Origin: a bacterium
Lineage (GTDB): Bacteria > Patescibacteriota > Minisyncoccia > Phycocordibacterales > UBA5272
Assembly (NCBI GenBank): GCA_023267595.1
Contig: JAHFNB010000002.1
Coordinates: 23,947 to 87,946 of the forward strand
DNA length: 64,000 nucleotides
Reading direction: 5' to 3'
The translations under genes were made by a program, and so were the position numbers. Shown one piece after another: positions 3,089 through 56,843 of the stretch (its first letter is position 1; every line of letters begins with the position of its first letter). The notes under the pieces are model-generated. The model made no database searches and was not told the origin of the DNA. It was given only the letters and a program-made list of their open reading frames with translations.

Positions 3089-4369
3089 ATGAAAGATCTT
3101 GTTAAGCAACTCGTTGTTGCTATCCTTACATGGGAAGCAAAGGTAGTTCTCTCAAAATATAAACCGTTTATTATTGGTGTTACTGGAAACCTTGGAAAGA
3201 CGAGTACCAAAGATGCAATCTACGCAGTTATGAAACAACATGTGTATGTGCGTCGTAGTGAGAAGAGTTTAAATAGTGAGTTTGGTGTACCACTTACTAT
3301 ACTTGGTGAAAAATCAGGATGGAATAATCCACTTCGTTGGCTTATGATTATTGTAAGAGGTTTTTTCGTATCCTTTAAAAGTAATTATCCTACACATCTT
3401 GTGCTTGAAATTGGTGCAGATAGACCAGGGGATATACAAAAGGTTTCCAAATGGTTACATCCTGATATTGTTGTGGTAACACAATTTGGTCAAGTTCCCG
3501 TACATGTGGAGTTTTTTGAAAATAGAGATGCGGTGGTTAATGAGAAAGGATATCTTGTTGAGGTACTTAAAGATACTGGATTATTTATTTATAATGCAGA
3601 TGATAATGATGCTCAGAAATTATTAAGTAAGACACAAGCAAGAAAAGTAAGTGTAGGTATTCATGAACAAGCCGATATAAAGGCAAACAATGTACGTATG
3701 TATGGTACTCCACTTATAGGCACTGAAGCAGATGTACTTATTGAAGATAAAGAATATCATATTGTTTTACCTGAAGTTGTAGGTAAGTCCCCTATCTATT
3801 CATCACTTCCGGCATTAGCAATCGCGCGAGAGTTATCTATTCCACTTGAAATTGCGTGTGCATCTCTCCGGGATTCTGATAAACCAAAAGGTCGTATGCG
3901 ACTATTATCTGGTATGAACGGTTCAATCATTATTGATGATACCTATAATGCATCTCCAAAAGCAACAGAGCATGGTCTTAAGACTCTTGCTGATATAGAA
4001 ACAAAGGGGAGAAAAATTGCTGTGTTAGGGGATATGCTTGAACTCGGTGAGTTTACTCATGATGAACATTATAAGATCGGTAAAGTTGCGGCAAAGTCTT
4101 GTCATAAATTATATACAGTTGGAATACGCGCGCGAGTTATTGCAGAAGGTGCACTTGATGAAAAGATGGAGGATATCCATATTATGGAATGCGATACATC
4201 AGTGGATGCAGGTAAGGAATTGGTACAAGTACTTAAAGAAGGTGATGTTGTGTATGTTAAGGGTTCTCAGAGTATGCGTATGGAACGTGCTGTAAAAATG
4301 ATTCTTGCCGAGTCTCATGAGCCATACAAAGTCTTAGTTCGCCAAGAAAAAGATTGGCAAAAGAGATAA
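3089..4369 (+). CDS. murF: UDP-N-acetylmuramoyl-tripeptide--D-alanyl-D-alanine ligase (Mur ligase family)
   Basis: 426 aa with the Mur ligase P-loop GVTGNLGKTSTKD, a central domain and a C-terminal Mur ligase domain; its position after secA is compatible. Confidence 0.8.
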   Translation: MKDLVKQLVVAILTWEAKVVLSKYKPFIIGVTGNLGKTSTKDAIYAVMKQHVYVRRSEKSLNSEFGVPLTILGEKSGWNNPLRWLMIIVRGFFVSFKSNYPTHLVLEIGADRPGDIQKVSKWLHPDIVVVTQFGQVPVHVEFFENRDAVVNEKGYLVEVLKDTGLFIYNADDNDAQKLLSKTQARKVSVGIHEQADIKANNVRMYGTPLIGTEADVLIEDKEYHIVLPEVVGKSPIYSSLPALAIARELSIPLEIACASLRDSDKPKGRMRLLSGMNGSIIIDDTYNASPKATEHGLKTLADIETKGRKIAVLGDMLELGEFTHDEHYKIGKVAAKSCHKLYTVGIRARVIAEGALDEKMEDIHIMECDTSVDAGKELVQVLKEGDVVYVKGSQSMRMERAVKMILAESHEPYKVLVRQEKDWQKR

Positions 4370-4405
4370 GGCAGGGGTTCTGTGCTATAATTTCGGGTAC
4401 TTTTC

Positions 4406-4480
4406 GGCCCTATCGTCTATCGGTTAGGACGTATCCTTCTCAAGGATAAAAGCGCGGTTCGATTCCGCGTAGGGTCACCA
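4406..4480 (+). tRNA. tRNA-Glu (anticodon CTC), CCA encoded
   Basis: Hand-folded cloverleaf: acceptor GGCCCTA/TAGGGTC, anticodon arm TATCC-TTCTCAA-GGATA, T-arm CGCGG-TTCGATT-CCGCG, discriminator A plus CCA. An extended -10 (tgtgcTATAAT) lies about 15 nt upstream. Confidence 0.85.
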
Positions 4481-4536
4481 ATTAGTGCTAGTACGAGAGG
4501 TATGAAATAAATTTATTCAGTGTTATTATTGACAGT

Positions 4537-6258
4537 ATGAGTTTTAAGTTTAAATCAGAGGATAAATCAATTGAAGAAGCTTTGTTTGGAATAAACAACC
4601 TAAGAGTTCCTCAGTTTCAAAGGCCTTACACATGGGAAGAAGACCAGTGCGGGGATTTTTGGAATGATCTAACTGATGATGATTCTTTTTTTCTGGGACA
4701 ATTTATTCTTAACTTCGAAAACAAGGAAAAGGAAAAATTTGTAGACATTGTTGATGGTCAACAAAGAACGACAAGTATATTAATACTATGTGCCGTTTTC
4801 CGCGATAAGTTAAAAGAGTTAGGTTTTAACGATGACGCAGATGTAATACAGGACAATGTGATGATTAGTAGAAAAAGTTTTGACGGGCCAGTCTTTAAGG
4901 TGCTGGTTTCACCCAACGTTAGTTCTTTTTTTGAAAAACACATTCAAACGGGTCAGAATGTGATTCAAACTAATACTTCATTTGATAATGATGAAGAAAA
5001 GAGGGTGATAAAAAACTATCTATTTTTTAAGGAGCAACTTAATGAACGCCTGTCTGGTTTAGATTTAAGTCATCAAGTCAAAGAAATAAAAAGAATTCAA
5101 ACTTTTCTGCTCAACACTAGAATAATTGTTACAGAAATCTATGATGAAAATGATGCTTATGAAATTTTTGAATCTGTGAATAATACAGGTATAGAGCTTG
5201 GGGTTGCGGACCTATTAAAAAATTTCTTGTTCAAGAGAGTTAAAATTGAAGAAGGGGGTTCAGTGTCAGATATAATGGATAAATGGAATGAAGTTTTAGA
5301 AAATGTCCAAAATTCTGAATTAACAAAATTTATAAGATATTATTGGCTTTCAAAACAAAAGGTTTTTGTAACTGAAGCAAAATTGTTTAAAGCAATCAAA
5401 AATCACCCTATAACCAGTGGTAAAGTATTACTACAAGAGCTTGTCGATAACGCTAAAATCTATTATGATTTACGAAACCCTCTTGATGCTGATTTTCAAA
5501 ATGTAGAGAACGTAGAAAGAGTTAGAAATTCCCTCATAGGAATAAGAGAGATGAATATTACTCAATGTTATGTTTTATTACTCTCTATCTATAGAAATAA
5601 AGATAAGATTAATACAAATTGGATAACAGTTTTTGAGCTTATTGAAAAATTTAATTTTATTTATCATGCTGTATCAAAATTACCAGCAAATAAGGTAGAA
5701 AAATTGTATCAAGAACTTGCCTTTAAAATAGAAGACATTGTAAACAAGAATGAAAACAGTGATTCGATGAGAGTTATTTTGGAAACTGAATTCAATAATC
5801 TTGAGAATAAATTAAAATCACTATTGCCCCCTAAAGAGGTTTTTATTCTAGGTTTTTCAGATCTCACTTATAAAAAGAAAGGTCTATGTCGATATACATT
5901 ATCAAAAATCGAAGAAAGTTTTGGAACCAAAGAGTATGTGCTTAACCACCCTACAATTACCATTGAGCATATATTACCTCAAAAACCTGGGAAAGACTGG
6001 AATTTAACATCCGGACAAATAAAAAACTATGTTCACAATATAGGTAATTTAACATTACTAGGTAAAAAACCTAATGGCACAGTTCAAAATAAGTCTATTG
6101 CAGATAAAATCATTATTTTAAAAGAATCAACAGAAGTAAAAATAACCCAGAAACTACTTTCTCAGATTGAGCCTACTGGTATATGGAATGAGGAATCTAT
6201 TAAAAGTCGAGCTATAGAGTTGGCAAATGTTGCCTTTGATAAGGTCTGGAAAATCTAA
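4537..6258 (+). CDS. GmrSD-family type IV restriction endonuclease-like protein (DUF262 N-terminal ParB-like NTPase + DUF1524 C-terminal His-Me nuclease)
   Basis: 573 aa. N-terminus has the DUF262 signature IVDGQQRTTS and FESVNNTG. C-terminus has the DUF1524 His-Me finger pattern IEHILPQ ... HNIGNLTLL ... N. Confidence 0.75.
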   Translation: MSFKFKSEDKSIEEALFGINNLRVPQFQRPYTWEEDQCGDFWNDLTDDDSFFLGQFILNFENKEKEKFVDIVDGQQRTTSILILCAVFRDKLKELGFNDDADVIQDNVMISRKSFDGPVFKVLVSPNVSSFFEKHIQTGQNVIQTNTSFDNDEEKRVIKNYLFFKEQLNERLSGLDLSHQVKEIKRIQTFLLNTRIIVTEIYDENDAYEIFESVNNTGIELGVADLLKNFLFKRVKIEEGGSVSDIMDKWNEVLENVQNSELTKFIRYYWLSKQKVFVTEAKLFKAIKNHPITSGKVLLQELVDNAKIYYDLRNPLDADFQNVENVERVRNSLIGIREMNITQCYVLLLSIYRNKDKINTNWITVFELIEKFNFIYHAVSKLPANKVEKLYQELAFKIEDIVNKNENSDSMRVILETEFNNLENKLKSLLPPKEVFILGFSDLTYKKKGLCRYTLSKIEESFGTKEYVLNHPTITIEHILPQKPGKDWNLTSGQIKNYVHNIGNLTLLGKKPNGTVQNKSIADKIIILKESTEVKITQKLLSQIEPTGIWNEESIKSRAIELANVAFDKVWKI

Positions 6259-6408
6259 ATCTACGCACGAGAAGGGTCAAAATGATATGCTAAAAACAAA
6301 CAAATAAACCTTGTGGGGGGGAATGAACCCATTAAGTTCTACCTGTTGAACGCTCACAGATAACAATGAGCAGTATTTTGGTGCGATTTTCATATTTGTG
6401 ATCCTATA

Positions 6409-6430
6409 GCAAGCCAACTGCTTGGCTTGC
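6409..6430 (+). repeat. Small hairpin GCAAGCCAA-ctgc-TTGGCTTGC immediately preceding structured element copy C
   Basis: Perfect 9-bp stem with the same ctgc loop as the hairpin that precedes copy B. Confidence 0.5.
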
Positions 6431-6433
6431 GAA

Positions 6434-6517
6434 GGAATCGAATAGGGGTCGAGGAGTCTCCTGTTTCGAACGAAGTAAGAAACGAGACGAGGTGACCGAT
6501 TCCGCGTAGGGTCACAG
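6434..6517 (+). repeat. Structured GC-rich element, copy C (GGAATCG...GAATAGGGGTCG...TGACC-GATTCC + tRNA-Glu 3'-end mimic)
   Basis: Shares the outer-stem architecture and GAATAGGGGTCG box with copies A (26863-26951) and B (56687-56789, minus strand). It ends with a 19-nt copy of the tRNA-Glu 3' end. Confidence 0.5.
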
Positions 6518-6594
6518 AATTGTCTTTTACCAAAAAACCTTTATTTTATAAGGTTTTTTGGTTATTACTATATAGGTTTCTTGGGCTAAAATGC

Positions 6595-6623
6595 TTGACA
6601 AAGGTGTTTAAATCTGCTATAAT
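6595..6623 (+). promoter_or_regulatory. Sigma70-like promoter (TTGACA-17 nt-TATAAT) upstream of the 6755 gene
   Basis: cTTGACAaaggtgtttaaatctgcTATAATga matches the consensus. Confidence 0.4.
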
Positions 6624-6754
6624 GACACACAATAGTGGACGTGTAAATACCTTAGATTATCAACGTGTAATAACAACGATTTCTCTGGTATTTTATTTTC
6701 ACTCACTATTTTCAGAAGACACAGGACCGTTTTATGGAGCGTAACCATTAAACT

Positions 6755-7291
6755 ATGATCAAAAACATTTATAAGGTAAGTCAAATACTCGCGTTTGTGC
6801 CATTCATGGCCATCCCAAGTATCTCACTTGCTTCACATATTGGCTCACTGAAAACTGCTTCTGTAACCACAGAACAAGTCTCAGTTGAAGATCTCCGTCA
6901 AGAAAAAGCAGATGCCATCGATTCTTATTTTAAGGATCGTTCAATGCCACTTAAAGGTACAGGTATGACATTCGTACTCGTTGCCGAGAAGTATGGTCTT
7001 GATTGGCGTCTACTTCCTGCAATTGCAGTTCGTGAATCCTCAGGTGGAAAGAATGCGTGTGGAAACAATCCATTCGGTTGGGGATCATGTAAGTTACATA
7101 ACTTCGGAAGTTTTGAACAGGCTATTGAATCTCTAGGTAAAAACTTAGGAGGTGCTAACCCAAAGACTGCTCGATACTATGCTGGAAAGTCAACTGCAGA
7201 AAAGTTATATCACTATAACGGTACTGTACTTGCTACATATCCAGATGAAGTTACTGAAATTATGAAATTAATCGAGACCGATAATAGTTAA
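6755..7291 (+). CDS. Secreted peptidoglycan hydrolase-like protein (glucosaminidase / FlgJ-type lysozyme-like domain)
   Basis: N-terminal signal-like hydrophobic segment. The motif LLPAIAVRESSGGKNACGNNPFGWGS resembles the ALESGWG...NNLFGI core of GH73 glucosaminidase domains. Confidence 0.5.
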   Translation: MIKNIYKVSQILAFVPFMAIPSISLASHIGSLKTASVTTEQVSVEDLRQEKADAIDSYFKDRSMPLKGTGMTFVLVAEKYGLDWRLLPAIAVRESSGGKNACGNNPFGWGSCKLHNFGSFEQAIESLGKNLGGANPKTARYYAGKSTAEKLYHYNGTVLATYPDEVTEIMKLIETDNS

Positions 7292-8000: not shown

Positions 8001-8088
8001 CGGAGATGTGGCTGAGTTGGTCGAAGGCACCTCACTGCTAACGAGGCAAGGGTTTACGCCCTTCGCGAGTTCGAATCTCGCCGTCTCC
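8001..8088 (+). tRNA. tRNA-Ser (anticodon GCT), class II with long variable arm
   Basis: Acceptor GGAGATG/CGTCTCC, anticodon loop CTGCTAA, long variable arm CAAGGGTTTACGCCCTTC, T-arm GCGAG-TTCGAAT-CTCGC. No CCA encoded. Confidence 0.85.
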
Positions 8089-8102
8089 GCATATACCATC
8101 TT

Positions 8103-8192
8103 GGAGAGATGGATGAGTGGTTTAAATCAACGGTTTACTAAACCGTCGACCTTTTATTAGGTCCGTGGGTTCGAATCCCACTCTCTCCGCCA
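8103..8192 (+). tRNA. Class II tRNA (long variable arm; anticodon loop TTACTAA gives apparent anticodon ACT, so assignment is uncertain)
   Basis: Acceptor GGAGAGA/TCTCTCC, anticodon arm ACGGT-TTACTAA-ACCGT, variable arm CGACCTTTTATTAGGTCC, T-arm GTGGG-TTCGAAT-CCCAC, discriminator G plus CCA. Confidence 0.7.
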
Positions 8193-8300
8193 GTTTAAAA
8201 GTATTTTGTATATACCTAACTTTACTTGTTAGATATTGCTATACTAAACAAAAGACCTAGTCGGTTCTTATTTATTAATTAACATATAGACATAATAATA

Positions 8301-8765
8301 ATGAAAAAAGTATATCTGAGTATCATAATCACACTCTCAACATTGTCACTGACATATGCAGAAGAAGCACAGAAACAAATGCCTCCACAAGTGGCACCCA
8401 TGGTCTCTACTGGAGATGTAAAGATAGACGAGCAAATCAAAGCATTGAATAAGGAAATGGAAGAGAAGATCAAAGCAATTCGCGATGATTATCTAACACG
8501 AATTAAAGCAATTGTAGGAACAAGAAAAGTTATGATGGCATCCACAACTCCACGAGGAATGATGGAAGGAGAAAAAAGAGGAATGAATGAAGGAAAGAAA
8601 ATGGGTCGCCCTATGATGGGAACATCAACAGATGGAACTATGCAACCTCCGATGAGACGAGCAGAGGTGCGAGGTGTAGAAACAGAGAATCTTAATCAAG
8701 TTGGTAATGCATTTGGTCCACGTATTCAAAATTTCTTAAAAGGATTTTTTGGAGGAGGCGAATAA
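8301..8765 (+). CDS. Secreted Met-rich hypothetical protein (possible periplasmic metal/Cu-binding)
   Basis: Signal peptide MKKVYLSIIITLSTLSLTYA. Met-rich segments such as MMEGEKRGMNEGKKMGRPMMG and MQPPM resemble Met-rich Cu(I)-binding motifs. Confidence 0.45.
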   Translation: MKKVYLSIIITLSTLSLTYAEEAQKQMPPQVAPMVSTGDVKIDEQIKALNKEMEEKIKAIRDDYLTRIKAIVGTRKVMMASTTPRGMMEGEKRGMNEGKKMGRPMMGTSTDGTMQPPMRRAEVRGVETENLNQVGNAFGPRIQNFLKGFFGGGE

Positions 8766-8799
8766 TAGAGAACTTTGGTTCTAGTACAGCACTATATAA

Positions 8800-8822
8800 A
8801 CATCCCTGTGGAAGCAGGGATA
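8800..8822. terminator. Bidirectional hairpin terminator (atccctg-tggaag-cagggat) between convergent genes
   Basis: Perfect 7-bp stem between the 8301-8765 (+) and comFC (-) stops. Confidence 0.4.
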
Positions 8823-8831
8823 TTTATATAG

Positions 8832-9452
8832 TTAATGGGCAAGAGTTAAGGCTACCACATTTCTTGCACCATGTTTAAGAAGTATGTGTCTTGCTTCATC
8901 TAATGTTGCACCTGTTGTGGTTACATCATCAATAAGAATAATATTTAAGTTTTGTACAGATGCTATGACAGAAAATGATTTTTTTTGATTTTGTATACGT
9001 AGAGAGCGTGAACTGGTCTTCACTTGTCTTTTTCTGTATGAAGAACGTTTAAGTAGAGTATTATGTATTTCTAGTGAATAGAGAGTACTGATTGTTTGTG
9101 CGATAACTTCTGCTTGATTATATCCTCGTATGTATTTTCGTATACCTAGCATAGGTACTGGTACAAGTATCCATTTATTTTCTCTTATGAATTGATAATT
9201 ATTCAATTCATAGAGTAATGGTTGTACTAAGTCGCGTCTATGATAGTATTTTATTGCGTGAATAATACGTTTAACTCGTATATCTTTAAAACTATACAAA
9301 CTATGTATATATCTGTGCGGTGTATCAATAGATTTTCTCAGTGATTGTATACAAGGGGTACATAGCACATCTCCTTCTTTATGACATACATAACACGAAG
9401 GAGGAAAAAGCAAAGTAAGTAATTTGTAGAAGTGGGATACTATCGTCCACAT
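8832..9452 (-). CDS. comFC: ComF family competence protein (phosphoribosyltransferase domain)
   Basis: N-terminal Cys4 finger (CYVCHKEGDVLCTPC) plus the PRTase motif ILIDDVTTTGATL. Confidence 0.8.
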   Translation of the reverse strand: MWTIVSHFYKLLTLLFPPSCYVCHKEGDVLCTPCIQSLRKSIDTPHRYIHSLYSFKDIRVKRIIHAIKYYHRRDLVQPLLYELNNYQFIRENKWILVPVPMLGIRKYIRGYNQAEVIAQTISTLYSLEIHNTLLKRSSYRKRQVKTSSRSLRIQNQKKSFSVIASVQNLNIILIDDVTTTGATLDEARHILLKHGARNVVALTLAH

Positions 9453-9499
9453 ATCTGTAGTGTATACCCAAAATTAAGAGCCTTTACGGTGTATACTTT

Positions 9500-10573
9500 A
9501 TGTATATGTTTCCTTTCTTTAAAAAAGAAGAGATAGGACAGGCTATTGGGCTTGATATCGGATCTTCATCAATCAAGGTGGTACAACTTCGTCGTGAAAA
9601 AGAAAAAATAATTCTTGATACATATGGAGAAATTGCACTTGGTCCATATGGTGGAATGCAAGTTGGTCAGGCCGTACATCTTGGGGAAGAAAAAACAATA
9701 GAAGCAATTAACGACGTTCTTAAAGAAGCAAAAATAACTGCACGAAATGCTGTTGTTGCAATAGATCCATCAAGCGCATATGTATCTTTGGTTAAAGTTC
9801 CAAAAGTTGATGATAATGAATTAAAAACAATGATGCCACTAGAAGCACGTAAGTATATCCCTGTTCCGCTTTCAGAGGTGCAAATGGATTGGTGGCATAT
9901 CCCAACAACTATTAATATTGGTAAAGAAGAACGTATGGTAAACGTGGTACTCGCAGCAGTAAGTAATGACACTATGACGGCATATGATCGTATTATTCAA
10001 AAAGTTGGTTTCAAAAATGTTGAATATGAAATACATGGGTATAGTATTATTCGCAGTTGTTCACCGCAGACACAAGGAATGATTCTCTATGTTGATATTG
10101 GAGCACAATATACGACGCTTTCACTTGTGTACCAAAATACTGTGCTTGATATGCATGTTATCTCACGAGGTTCACAAGATAGTACAATACAACTTTCGAA
10201 AGCACTTTCAATTGCAATTGAAACTGCAGAAGATACAAAGCGAACATTTGGATATCTTGGTGACTCATCTAATTTATATATTAAAGATGTGATGCAATTA
10301 TCTAGTTATCCACTGTTTGGTGAGGTAGCACGTCTATCACTAATGTTCGAAAGAAAGTATAATCAGAATATAGAAGGAATAATTTTAAGTGGCGGTGGTG
10401 CGCGTGTTCCTGGTGTACTTGATGCGTATAATCAAACAGTACATATAGCAGGAAGAATTGCAACACCGTTTGAACAAATTGACGTCCCACCATTTCTTCA
10501 TGAAATGATAGAACGTATTGGTCCAACCTATGCGGTAGCCGTTGGTTGTGCTCTTAAAAAATTAGTTCCATAA
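9500..10573 (+). CDS. pilM: Type IV pilus assembly protein PilM (actin-like ATPase)
   Basis: GLDIGSSSIKVVQL actin-fold N-terminus, about 357 aa, first gene of the pilMNO set. Confidence 0.85.
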   Translation: MYMFPFFKKEEIGQAIGLDIGSSSIKVVQLRREKEKIILDTYGEIALGPYGGMQVGQAVHLGEEKTIEAINDVLKEAKITARNAVVAIDPSSAYVSLVKVPKVDDNELKTMMPLEARKYIPVPLSEVQMDWWHIPTTINIGKEERMVNVVLAAVSNDTMTAYDRIIQKVGFKNVEYEIHGYSIIRSCSPQTQGMILYVDIGAQYTTLSLVYQNTVLDMHVISRGSQDSTIQLSKALSIAIETAEDTKRTFGYLGDSSNLYIKDVMQLSSYPLFGEVARLSLMFERKYNQNIEGIILSGGGARVPGVLDAYNQTVHIAGRIATPFEQIDVPPFLHEMIERIGPTYAVAVGCALKKLVP

Positions 10574-10582
10574 ACCCAATTC

Positions 10583-11347
10583 ATGCCGTTTTCATTTAAA
10601 CCAACAGAAGCAATACAAGCAGAGACGCAAGCCTCTACGCCTCTAAGTGTTGATGGCATCTCTGCTCCTGCTTCATCTTCTGTAACACCATTTTCTACTC
10701 GTTTTTCTTTGGAAGGAAGGGGGATTCTTCAAATAGGTTTGTTTGCTATTTTTGGTTTTGCTATGTTGGTTACTATTATTCTTTTCGGATATAATTATTA
10801 TTTGACTTCACAAATAGAGAATAAAAAAGTACAACTCGCAGCATATGATAAAGAGTTTAGTACATTATCACTTGGTGATATGCAAGCATTATCAAGTCGT
10901 ATAAAAGTTATTGGGAATCTTGTACGAGAACATCCATCAGTTCGTGTTGCATTTCGTATTCTTGAAGAATCTGTAGAGAACCCTGTTATCTATAAAAGTT
11001 TCGATTTACATTTTTCTGACACACTTCGATCGTATGAGTTAGTATTGGCAGCATCTGCACCAGATTATCATTCTGTTGTTGACCAAATGGATACGTTCAA
11101 ACGAAAACCATTTGTGGGCTATATTCGTAGTATTACTCTTAGTGGTTTACGTCCAGACACATCAGGAAAAGTTAATTTTAACTTGAAGATGCCTATTGCG
11201 ATAACAGGCATGCTTCCAGAAGGTCTTACATTTCAAGATGTACCAGAGAATATACCAAATAGTACTGTGAGTACTTCTTCTCAGGCAACGAGCACTTCAT
11301 CACAAGCAACAAGTACAAATAAAATTGTTGTTCCATCAAAACCATAA
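10583..11347 (+). CDS. pilN: PilN-like type IV pilus assembly protein (single TM)
   Basis: One N-proximal TM segment (ILQIGLFAIFGFAMLVTIILFGY), position after pilM, Ser/Thr-rich C-terminus. Confidence 0.55.
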   Translation: MPFSFKPTEAIQAETQASTPLSVDGISAPASSSVTPFSTRFSLEGRGILQIGLFAIFGFAMLVTIILFGYNYYLTSQIENKKVQLAAYDKEFSTLSLGDMQALSSRIKVIGNLVREHPSVRVAFRILEESVENPVIYKSFDLHFSDTLRSYELVLAASAPDYHSVVDQMDTFKRKPFVGYIRSITLSGLRPDTSGKVNFNLKMPIAITGMLPEGLTFQDVPENIPNSTVSTSSQATSTSSQATSTNKIVVPSKP

Positions 11348-26757: not shown

Positions 26758-26831
26758 GCAGTCGTAGCTCAGCTGGTTAGAGCACCGCCCTGTCACGGCG
26801 GGGGTCGTGGGTTCAAATCCCATCGACTGCG
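26758..26831 (+). tRNA. tRNA-Asp (anticodon GTC)
   Basis: Acceptor GCAGTCG/CGACTGC, anticodon arm CCGCC-CTGTCAC-GGCGG, T-arm GTGGG-TTCAAAT-CCCAT. Confidence 0.85.
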
Positions 26832-26839
26832 CAAAAAGT

Positions 26840-26857
26840 AACTGACCTATATCAGTT
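26840..26857 (+). repeat. Small hairpin (AACTGA-cctata-TCAGTT) preceding structured element copy A
   Basis: Same relative position as the hairpins that precede copies B and C. Confidence 0.4.
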
Positions 26858-26862
26858 GCGTT

Positions 26863-26951
26863 GGGATTTGAATAGGGGTTGCGAAATTACTTCGAGCCTG
26901 CCTCGCCGTTAGGCGGGCAACGCGAGGCAGGTTTGCGACCAAATCCTATCA
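26863..26951 (+). repeat. Structured GC-rich element, copy A (GGGATTTGAATAGGGGTTGCGAAATTACTTCGAGCCTGCCTCGCC...GCGAGGCAGGTTTGCGACCAAATCCTATCA)
   Basis: Nested inverted repeats GGATTTG/CAAATCC and CCTGCCTCGC/GCGAGGCAGG. Roughly 75% identical to the minus-strand element at 56687-56789, with compensatory changes. The 3' end mimics the tRNA-Asp 3' end (about 15 of 18 nt). Confidence 0.5.
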
Positions 26952-27002
26952 CTAGTAGTATTTGCATATTTTTCTCGACCATGTTAGATTTCACAATATT
27001 AT

Positions 27003-56686: not shown

Positions 56687-56789
56687 TTGTGCCGGGGGTG
56701 GGACTTGGTCACAAAACTACCTCGCATTGCTCGCCTGCCGGTGAGGTAGGCTCGAAGTAGTTTCGCGACCCCATATTCAAGTCCCACAC
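56687..56789 (-). repeat. Structured GC-rich element, copy B (minus-strand sense GTGTGGGACTTGAATATGGGGTCGCGAAACTACTTCGAGCCTACCTCACC...GCGAGGTAGTTTTGTGACCAAGTCCCACCCCCGGCA)
   Basis: Homologous to copy A with compensatory changes in both stems. Its last 21 nt (plus-strand TTGTGCCGGGGGTGGGACTTG, 56687-56707) exactly duplicate the 3' end of tRNA-Leu at 56841-56861. It is preceded in the minus-strand sense by hairpin AAAAGTGAC-ctgc-GTCACTTTT (56790-56810). Confidence 0.5.
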
Positions 56790-56843
56790 AAAAGTGACGC
56801 AGGTCACTTTTTCCCAACACAAAATCATTTCATTCTTTTTTTG

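Follow-up and report, generated by a model that had tools for sequence, protein, structure and literature searches.

The 64,000-nt window analysed here (GenBank assembly GCA_023267595.1, contig JAHFNB010000002.1, positions 23,947 to 87,946) contains a single GmrSD-like gene that follows an intact tRNA-Glu(CUC) on the same strand at a distance of 56 nt, and this gene, together with the noncoding segments that accompany it, forms the subject of this work (Table 1; other loci are designated by L and a number). The initial annotation had assigned to this position a protein combining the domains DUF262 and DUF1524, and its gene limits proved to be exact: the open reading frame (ORF) is intact, starts with ATG and encodes 573 amino acids on the plus strand. 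Searches against Pfam recovered both domains far above their gathering scores, GmrSD_N (PF03235) with an E value of 2.5e-34 (119.6 bits, cutoff 33.2) and GmrSD_C (PF07510) with an E value of 3.9e-21 (75.8 bits, cutoff 23). The motifs on which that annotation had relied are likewise in place. The N-terminal domain carries the motif PxFQRxYxW (residues 25-33) and the DGQQR box (residues 73-77, nt 4753-4767; VDGQQR at residues 72-77), and the C-terminal domain carries the elements of a His-Me finger, namely EHILPQ with E477-H478 (residues 477-482, nt 5965-5982), NIGNLTLL with N504 (residues 501-508, nt 6037-6060) and N513 (nt 6073-6075). In an alignment of 44 homologs that spans 35-90% identity, residues P25, Q28, R29, Y31, W33 and D73, G74, Q75, Q76 and R77 of the N-terminal domain are invariant, as are E477, H478, L480, P481, G503, N504, L505, T506 and N513 of the nuclease domain. 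The AlphaFold2 (AF2) model of the protein (mean predicted local distance difference test score, pLDDT, 86.9; predicted template modelling score, pTM, 0.68) places the two domains on either side of an all-helical middle region, and its nuclease domain forms β strands at residues 475-478 and 505-508 and then a helix, the ββα scaffold of this fold. The ratio of nonsynonymous to synonymous substitution rates (dN/dS) against five homologs ranges from 0.014 to 0.072, with synonymous sites saturated. Since the ORF is intact, the catalytic residues are invariant and dN/dS is low, the gene appears functional by every sequence test available and under strong purifying selection.

Table 1. Features of the GmrSD-like locus and of related loci (coordinates refer to the window unless another locus is named)
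Feature	Position	Strand	Basis
tRNA-Glu (anticodon CUC), intact, with encoded CCA; insertion anchor	4406..4480	+	ARAGORN; Rfam tRNA, 55.9 bits
Single-gene cassette (leader, ORF, conserved 3′ segment), ~1.88 kb	~4481..6361	+	Noncoding homology with L187 and L190
Left-end motif GCTAGTACGAG	4487..4497	+	GCTAG[CT]AC[GT]AG in L187 and L190 (alignment)
Promoter-like site ATGAAA-16-TATTAT with TG, 8 nt before ATG	4502..4529	+	Consensus scan
GmrSD-like (HEC-06-type) protein gene, 573 aa	4537..6258	+	ATG start; intact ORF
N-terminal DUF262/GmrSD_N ParB-like NTPase domain, aa 16-232	4582..5232	+	Pfam; invariant columns
All-helical linker/middle domain, aa ~233-432	5233..5832	+	AF2 helices 243-428, pLDDT mostly 85-95
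C-terminal DUF1524/GmrSD_C His-Me finger nuclease domain, aa 433-564	5833..6228	+	Pfam; invariant columns; AF2
Conserved 3′ noncoding segment, starting CGAGAAGGGTC and ending ACGCTCACAGAT (6350-6361)	6259..6361	+	Alignment of three copies
Copies of the 3′ segment in homologous loci	L187 6006-6110; L190 2501-2603; L184 7735-7823; L191 4740-4830		
Structured tRNA-trailer element; downstream border of the cassette, outside it	6395..6516	+	Fold z score; covariance model
Perfect 13-bp hairpin followed by a T-rich run	6529..6562	+	Inverted repeat
Trailer copy after tRNA-Asp	26826-26959	+	Covariance model
Trailer copy after tRNA-Leu	56688-56823	-	Covariance model
Trailer copy after tRNA-Ser, L013	L013 12000-12119	-	
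Trailer copy after tRNA-Glu, L014	L014 8107-8223	+	
Divergent trailer copy, L017	L017 ~9280-9400		
tRNAs beside homologous genes: Glu-UUC (L003); Glu-CUC of different sequence (L005/L006); Glu-UUC in FtsA-FtsZ context (L187); Gln-UUG (L010-L012/L184)			

As exemplars of this architecture, GmrSD, BrxU and SspE had been named at the outset, and while the shared superfamily and domain plan hold, the protein is not close to any of the three, belonging instead to the HEC-06 group and having DndI as its nearest structure. The best PADLOC families were HEC-06 models, which match over the full length (E values from 4.7e-93 to 1.2e-88) and are headed by PDLC04157 with 310.7 bits (residues 7-572, profile positions 9-556 of 558). 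The runners-up were models labelled ‘Orf5’ (257 bits), SspE (67 bits) and the type IV model mREase_IV (33 bits), the last of which matches just residues 159-260 (E value 7.6e-9); no NCBIfam model matched the protein. A profile built from the 44 family sequences and compared with the PDB sequences retrieved DndI (9JFL) over the full length with an E value of 3.4e-32 and SspE with 7e-18, and did not reach BrxU at E ≤ 0.01. The AF2 model gave a similar picture in Foldseek, where significant matches in the PDB were limited to DndI, SspE and BrxU, with template modelling (TM) scores of 0.70 for DndI, the best whole-chain match, 0.43 for SspE and 0.34 for BrxU. By these comparisons the predicted protein belongs securely to the GmrSD-like superfamily and falls on the HEC-06/DndI-like branch rather than the GmrSD/BrxU branch, its HEC-06 subgroup being assigned through the PADLOC profiles and not against the sequence of the tested HEC-06 protein. 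Homologs at 54-90% identity form a tight clade, beyond which identity falls to ~45% and then to ~41%; the family includes hundreds of metagenomic proteins, and full-length relatives of up to ~31% identity occur in 232 plasmid records and 6 phage records. The protein thus adds a member to an already known family and leaves the knowledge of the family itself unchanged.

The characterised proteins nearest to it in layout allow its likely activity to be framed. HEC-06 (Hma-embedded candidate 06) is a single GmrSD-like gene that protects E. coli against phages, and its defence is abolished by the DGQQR mutants Q79A and R80A and by the EHICP mutants E471A/H472A (Payne et al., bioRxiv 10.1101/2024.01.29.577857). 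With HEC-06 the present protein shares a single chain of ~560-575 residues composed of DUF262, a helical linker and DUF1524, the DGQQR box, and a nuclease motif of the form EHxxP (EHICP in HEC-06, EHILP here). Both also lack the RLFDS motif of BrxU, the N-terminal helix here reading EEALFGI, without the R and S of that motif. What sets the two apart is their setting, HEC-06 having been discovered embedded in Hma systems of other bacteria, whereas the present gene is solitary, adjacent to a tRNA and part of a genome of the Candidate Phyla Radiation (CPR). BrxU and GmrSD proper (PDB 7P9K; Eco94GmrSD, EcoCTGmrSD) are single-protein type IV enzymes directed at DNA with 5-methylcytosine, 5-hydroxymethylcytosine or glucosylated 5-hydroxymethylcytosine, and BrxU loses its function in the D474A/H475A mutant. 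They have the same pair of Pfam domains and the same logic of a His-Me nuclease gated by nucleoside triphosphate (NTP), but carry DHIYP where the present protein has EHILP, and both RLFDS (BrxU) and a bacteriophage exclusion (BREX) neighbourhood are lacking here. Mutation of the Q or R of DGQQR abolishes function in BrxU and DndI as well as in HEC-06.

The anchoring of the gene at a tRNA, also proposed in the initial annotation, is borne out by comparison with related genomes. Three loci from relatives (L013, L014 and L017) keep the order SecA-MurF...tRNA-Glu...orf178 and lack the GmrSD gene at this site; the tRNA-Glu is 100% identical to that of L013 and L017, both of which are without the cassette, and its 3′ flank differs in content among the three loci, which makes it a variable hotspot. 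The gene also stands out by its composition, with a GC content of 0.309 that is the lowest of 30 ORFs compared (mean 0.364, standard deviation 0.021) and a GC content at third codon positions above average. Because it is absent from the site in these syntenic relatives and atypical in composition, we regard the gene as a horizontally acquired single-gene insert behind the tRNA. The same arrangement recurs elsewhere. Close homologs (66-87% identity) are located immediately 3′ of tRNA-Glu (L003, L005, L187) or tRNA-Gln (L010, L184), on the same strand and 40-210 nt away wherever the upstream sequence suffices, and the members of the clade occupy mutually unrelated housekeeping neighbourhoods. 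At L190, ARAGORN found no tRNA within the 742 nt upstream of the gene. In the wider family, a tRNA within 400 nt upstream was found in none of 142 loci (0/70 metagenomic, 0/72 viral), so tRNA adjacency as a trait of the entire family was rejected; because the adjacency recurs in the CPR clade but in none of these 142 loci, tRNA anchoring is a real property of that clade and not of the whole family.

Several of the homologous loci have neighbours or contexts of their own. The cassette of L191/L192 lies beside a C5 DNA methylase and an NmeDI-like endonuclease (4839-7069), that of L010 beside a DUF4145 protein and a PemK toxin (10073-11295), and that of L184 beside a HATPase_c protein and a methyltransferase (8066-10384), and these sites look like small defence islands. 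A homolog with 86% identity (P0004; L182, 1-8122) is found on a 9-kb contig that also encodes a rolling-circle initiator (REP_ORF2-G2P) and an 808-aa AAA_16 ATPase, and that may be a plasmid or phage-like vehicle; upstream of the gene this contig has a GGTCAC hairpin that resembles a tRNA end, along with two motifs, GGCTCACAAAT and TTAGTAACTTGTGAC, found too in the L017 element. Many short-read assemblies contain contigs of ~1.9-2.7 kb with this gene alone, which break inside the upstream tRNA. Among the Logan contigs, L001 and L002 equal positions 4452-6831 and 4450-6763 of the window, and L007, L009, L183, L188 and L189 are similar. Such breaks may reflect tRNA sequence common to co-occurring strains, and a presence/absence polymorphism of the cassette is possible. 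Neither a circle nor an empty-site junction was present in the Logan contigs with an identical gene, all of which are collinear with the window, and an exact search of metagenome contigs for an attR or empty-site junction gave 0 matches.

The limits of the inserted unit can be read from its noncoding homology to the copies in L187 and L190, which begins just past the CCA of the tRNA and ends abruptly at ~6361. Between these limits there is no further ORF and no recombinase, in line with the single-gene cargo that had been proposed. At the left end, the promoter-like site could be the gene's own promoter or belong to a short-leader transcript, a possibility for which a consensus match is weak evidence. 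At the right end, the ~105 nt past the stop codon retain ~76% column identity across three copies despite saturated synonymous sites, and most copies of this segment open with CGAGRAGGGTC. A structured RNA was considered and rejected here, as neither the fold z score (+0.8) nor alifold (-2.35) lent support; since the segment is conserved yet carries no signal of RNA structure, a role at the level of the DNA, for instance in recombination or regulation, is suggested. Its final motif, ACGCTCACAGAT, is unique in the window and matches the 3′ end of tRNA-Glu imperfectly over a short stretch (~7/11 nt). The subclade at tRNA-Gln has an analogous 3′ segment, which in L184 and L010 closes with CCAGCCAGTT and thereby reproduces the 3′ end of tRNA-Gln. 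The L184 cassette is moreover flanked by a direct repeat with 26/31 matches (z 8.7), the sole case of tRNA-derived repeats found around the other close homologs, and L191 has a tRNA 3′-half fragment at the left end of its cassette. One match of the cassette-end motif in viral contigs was set aside as a chance match, no GmrSD homolog being present there. Elements that are flanked by attachment (att) sites and lack an integrase are known already as CIMEs (cis-mobilisable elements). The cassette resembles these and tRNA-targeted islets in its insertion at a tRNA 3′ end, its foreign composition, its absence from syntenic relatives, the lack of a recombinase in cis and the short tRNA-end copy at its distal end; it differs from them in comprising just ~1.9 kb and one gene, and in a distal repeat that is short and imperfect both here and in L184. 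No cognate parent element with an integrase came to light for the cassette.

Just beyond the cassette lies a second tRNA-derived sequence. The 3′ end of tRNA-Glu recurs as a perfect direct repeat of 19 nt (4460-4478 and 6497-6515), which suggests itself as the attL/attR pair of an islet, and this candidate was rejected: the second copy is not an attR but forms the 3′ strand of a structured tRNA-trailer element, because the whole of 6395-6516 is conserved in the gene-less L014, folds strongly and recurs after tRNAs without cargo. Its minimum free energy is -50.9 kcal/mol, with a z score of -5.35 against shuffled sequences (-7.0 in L014 and -6.0 in L017). The element measures ~115-135 nt and has a conserved core, GAATAYGGGGTCGCGAAACTACTTCGAG...GGTAGTTTTGTGACC, around which the tRNA-end copy pairs with complementary upstream segments. 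Each copy terminates in the 3′ end of its own tRNA, beginning at the T-loop and reaching the discriminator base (18/18 for tRNA-Leu). The consensus of the five copies comprises 36 pairs, with compensatory changes in 14, and conserved G·U pairs in addition. In the single copy scanned against Rfam (window 4300-6800), no match to the trailer was found. Since the covariance model was silent in other GmrSD loci and in 80 metagenomic loci, the trailer is a lineage-specific element and not part of the cassette, which was inserted between tRNA-Glu and the pre-existing trailer. It could function as an RNA trailing the tRNA, serve as a site of recombination or represent a miniature element. The hairpin that follows is likely to be the terminator with which the transcription unit of tRNA-Glu originally ended, and the flank at 6531-6760 is conserved in L013 at 81%. 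In that closest syntenic relative (‘bacterium nzgw472’; L013 7252-8160), the identical tRNA-Glu is inverted relative to MurF and orf178, and its 3′ side shows GGGTCACCAAAGGGTCACAATT, in which 7 nt of the tRNA end are duplicated, and then a small membrane-protein ORF, with the trailer element missing; this arrangement suggests recombination or inversion at the tRNA-Glu hotspot.

Elsewhere in the window, a Pfam scan of 38 further ORFs, mostly of at least 140 aa, returned housekeeping and cell-envelope genes or no match, so that the GmrSD-like gene is the sole accessory gene found in the 64 kb. Among the genes recognised are those for type IV pili, LigA, GatA/B, RpoB/C, DnaG, RpoD, Obg, MiaA, ParB, RelA/SpoT, TopA and DprA, together with others which, from their translations read by eye, we take to be SecA, a MurF-like ligase, ComF and PilM/N/O. 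None of the ORFs scanned encodes an integrase or recombinase, a DNA methyltransferase, a dnd or ssp component, or an IscS-type or PAPS-reductase-type protein (PAPS, 3′-phosphoadenosine 5′-phosphosulfate). The syntenic metagenome-assembled genomes, with MurF at 75-80% identity, are Patescibacteria/CPR, which supports the earlier remark that the host genome is very small. The window also contains, at 8103-8192 on the plus strand and in tandem with tRNA-Ser(GCU), a tRNA that ARAGORN calls as tRNA-Ser with an ACU anticodon, A occupying position 34; it is kept in L013 (12140-12229, minus strand), and its anticodon is unusual for bacteria.

The findings established above, which comprise family membership, the intact catalytic motifs, the fold, the purifying selection, the status as an insertion and the repeated occurrence at the 3′ ends of tRNAs, together make it probable, in our view, that the gene encodes a stand-alone HEC-06-type defence nuclease following type IV logic, and that it is the sole cargo of a ~1.9-kb, integrase-less tRNA cassette. 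Under this interpretation, the DUF262 ParB-like domain would bind and hydrolyse NTP via the DGQQR loop (D73-R77) and act as a conformational switch, the helical middle domain would provide dimerisation and contact to DNA, and the DUF1524 His-Me finger (E477/H478, N504, N513) would nick or cleave DNA with the help of a divalent metal. The targets would be phage DNA with a base or backbone modification that is absent in the host: as the gene travels alone and HEC-06 protects E. coli unaided, the DNA of the host must be a non-substrate, and type IV logic is the most economical reading of this. The defence function, the NTP-gated nuclease mechanism and the dependence on modification are all things that we infer by analogy with characterised relatives.

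A number of points weigh against this interpretation. The protein is known here from its sequence and predicted structure alone, and the target specificity of HEC-06 itself is unpublished (bioRxiv 10.1101/2024.01.29.577857). The putative mobility of the cassette as a discrete element is weakened by its having neither a long att repeat of its own nor a recombinase, and two close homologs (L182 and L186) have no tRNA beside the gene. Finally, the closest structural relative suggests that ‘modification-dependent’ could have the wrong sign, since DndI restricts unmodified DNA and needs phosphorothioation of the host; SspE, too, responds to phosphorothioates in the DNA of its host. DndI of Salmonella (PDB 9JFL) is a phosphorothioate-sensing ATPase and Mg/Mn-dependent nickase that is coupled to iscS-dndBCDE and restricts phosphorothioate-free DNA (PMC11662687).

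The present protein might accordingly be an effector like DndI or SspE, one that senses phosphorothioates of the host, spares self DNA through a phosphorothioate-stimulated NTPase and nicks phosphorothioate-free invaders, with the required dnd or ssp genes located elsewhere in the genome. We consider this very unlikely, despite a two-domain plan, a DGQQR box and a His-Me motif in common with DndI, which is the best full-length match by both profile and fold, with SspE in second place. SspE (PDB 6JIV/7DRS) likewise combines a DUF262 domain containing DGQQR with a DUF1524 nicking domain (Foldseek E value 1.9e-13), and the PADLOC models for SspE also match. Moreover, an aromatic residue, F27, aligns with Y25 in the hydrophobic, phosphorothioate-sensing pocket of DndI; that position, however, lies within the generic DUF262 motif PxYQRxYxW, where F or Y does not discriminate. 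Identity to DndI is just 19%, and SspE is a longer protein of 771 aa with extra regions, of which just the terminal domains align. The partners of both are missing as well: SspABCD, to which SspE is coupled, is absent here, and dnd/ssp, IscS-type or PAPS-reductase-type genes, the DndI partners iscS-dndBCDE included, are found neither among the ORFs scanned in the window nor adjacent to close homologs in ~10 independent contexts. The gene appears to move as a single-gene cassette, its PADLOC score for HEC-06 (311 bits) far exceeds that for SspE, and HEC-06 alone suffices in E. coli.

Even less likely is that the locus represents the decaying remnant of a larger tRNA-integrated island or prophage, which lost its integrase and kept the GmrSD gene by chance, as a gene no longer important. 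Such a history would fit the lack of an integrase, the variable tRNA-Glu 3′ flank of the syntenic relatives and traces of rearrangement, among them the inverted tRNA-Glu of L013; yet the ORF is intact, its catalytic residues are invariant, dN/dS stays at 0.01-0.07, the compact unit of leader, ORF and 3′ segment recurs at other sites, and the conservation of the 3′ noncoding segment exceeds what neutrality would predict. The least probable alternative is a primarily selfish element, whose nuclease would spread or retain its own cassette either by addiction or by cutting empty tRNA sites in the manner of homing, defence being a by-product at most: His-Me/HNH nucleases include homing endonucleases, and the cassette is integrase-less, single-gene, bounded by conserved noncoding ends and present at the 3′ ends of tRNAs in four or more independent neighbourhoods, but all characterised DUF262-DUF1524 proteins are defence nucleases, none of the 142 wider-family loci lies beside a tRNA, the saturated synonymous sites between copies indicate transfers that are old and not ongoing, and the sequence yields no cleavage-site logic.

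Beyond the reading as a stand-alone defence nuclease, it is tempting to speculate that the CPR copies belong to a previously undescribed family of ~1.9-kb integrase-less single-gene defence cassettes. Each of these would consist of a leader, the ORF and a conserved 3′ segment of 90-105 nt that closes with a short copy of the 3′ end of the target tRNA, and would be inserted site-specifically at CPR tRNA-Glu or tRNA-Gln 3′ ends by recombination acting in trans, possibly with the trailers as sites. We hold this proposal to be unlikely; were the trailers recombination sites, the system might be loosely analogous to the attI/attC cassettes of integrons. A compact integrase-less cassette that recurs at CPR tRNA 3′ ends is a neat setting, albeit not an unprecedented one. 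The trailer element, supported by covariation, found after several tRNAs and ending in the 3′ end of its own tRNA, may be of wider interest, and it cautions that not every tRNA-end repeat is an integration scar. The protein, for its part, is a compact HEC-06-type example that is readily synthesised and amenable to the determination of its specificity. The genomes of CPR/Patescibacteria are very small, and these bacteria are commonly described as holding little immunity beyond restriction-modification; a strongly conserved, stand-alone GmrSD-like nuclease carried as a one-gene insert would be a way for such tiny genomes to gain defence cheaply.

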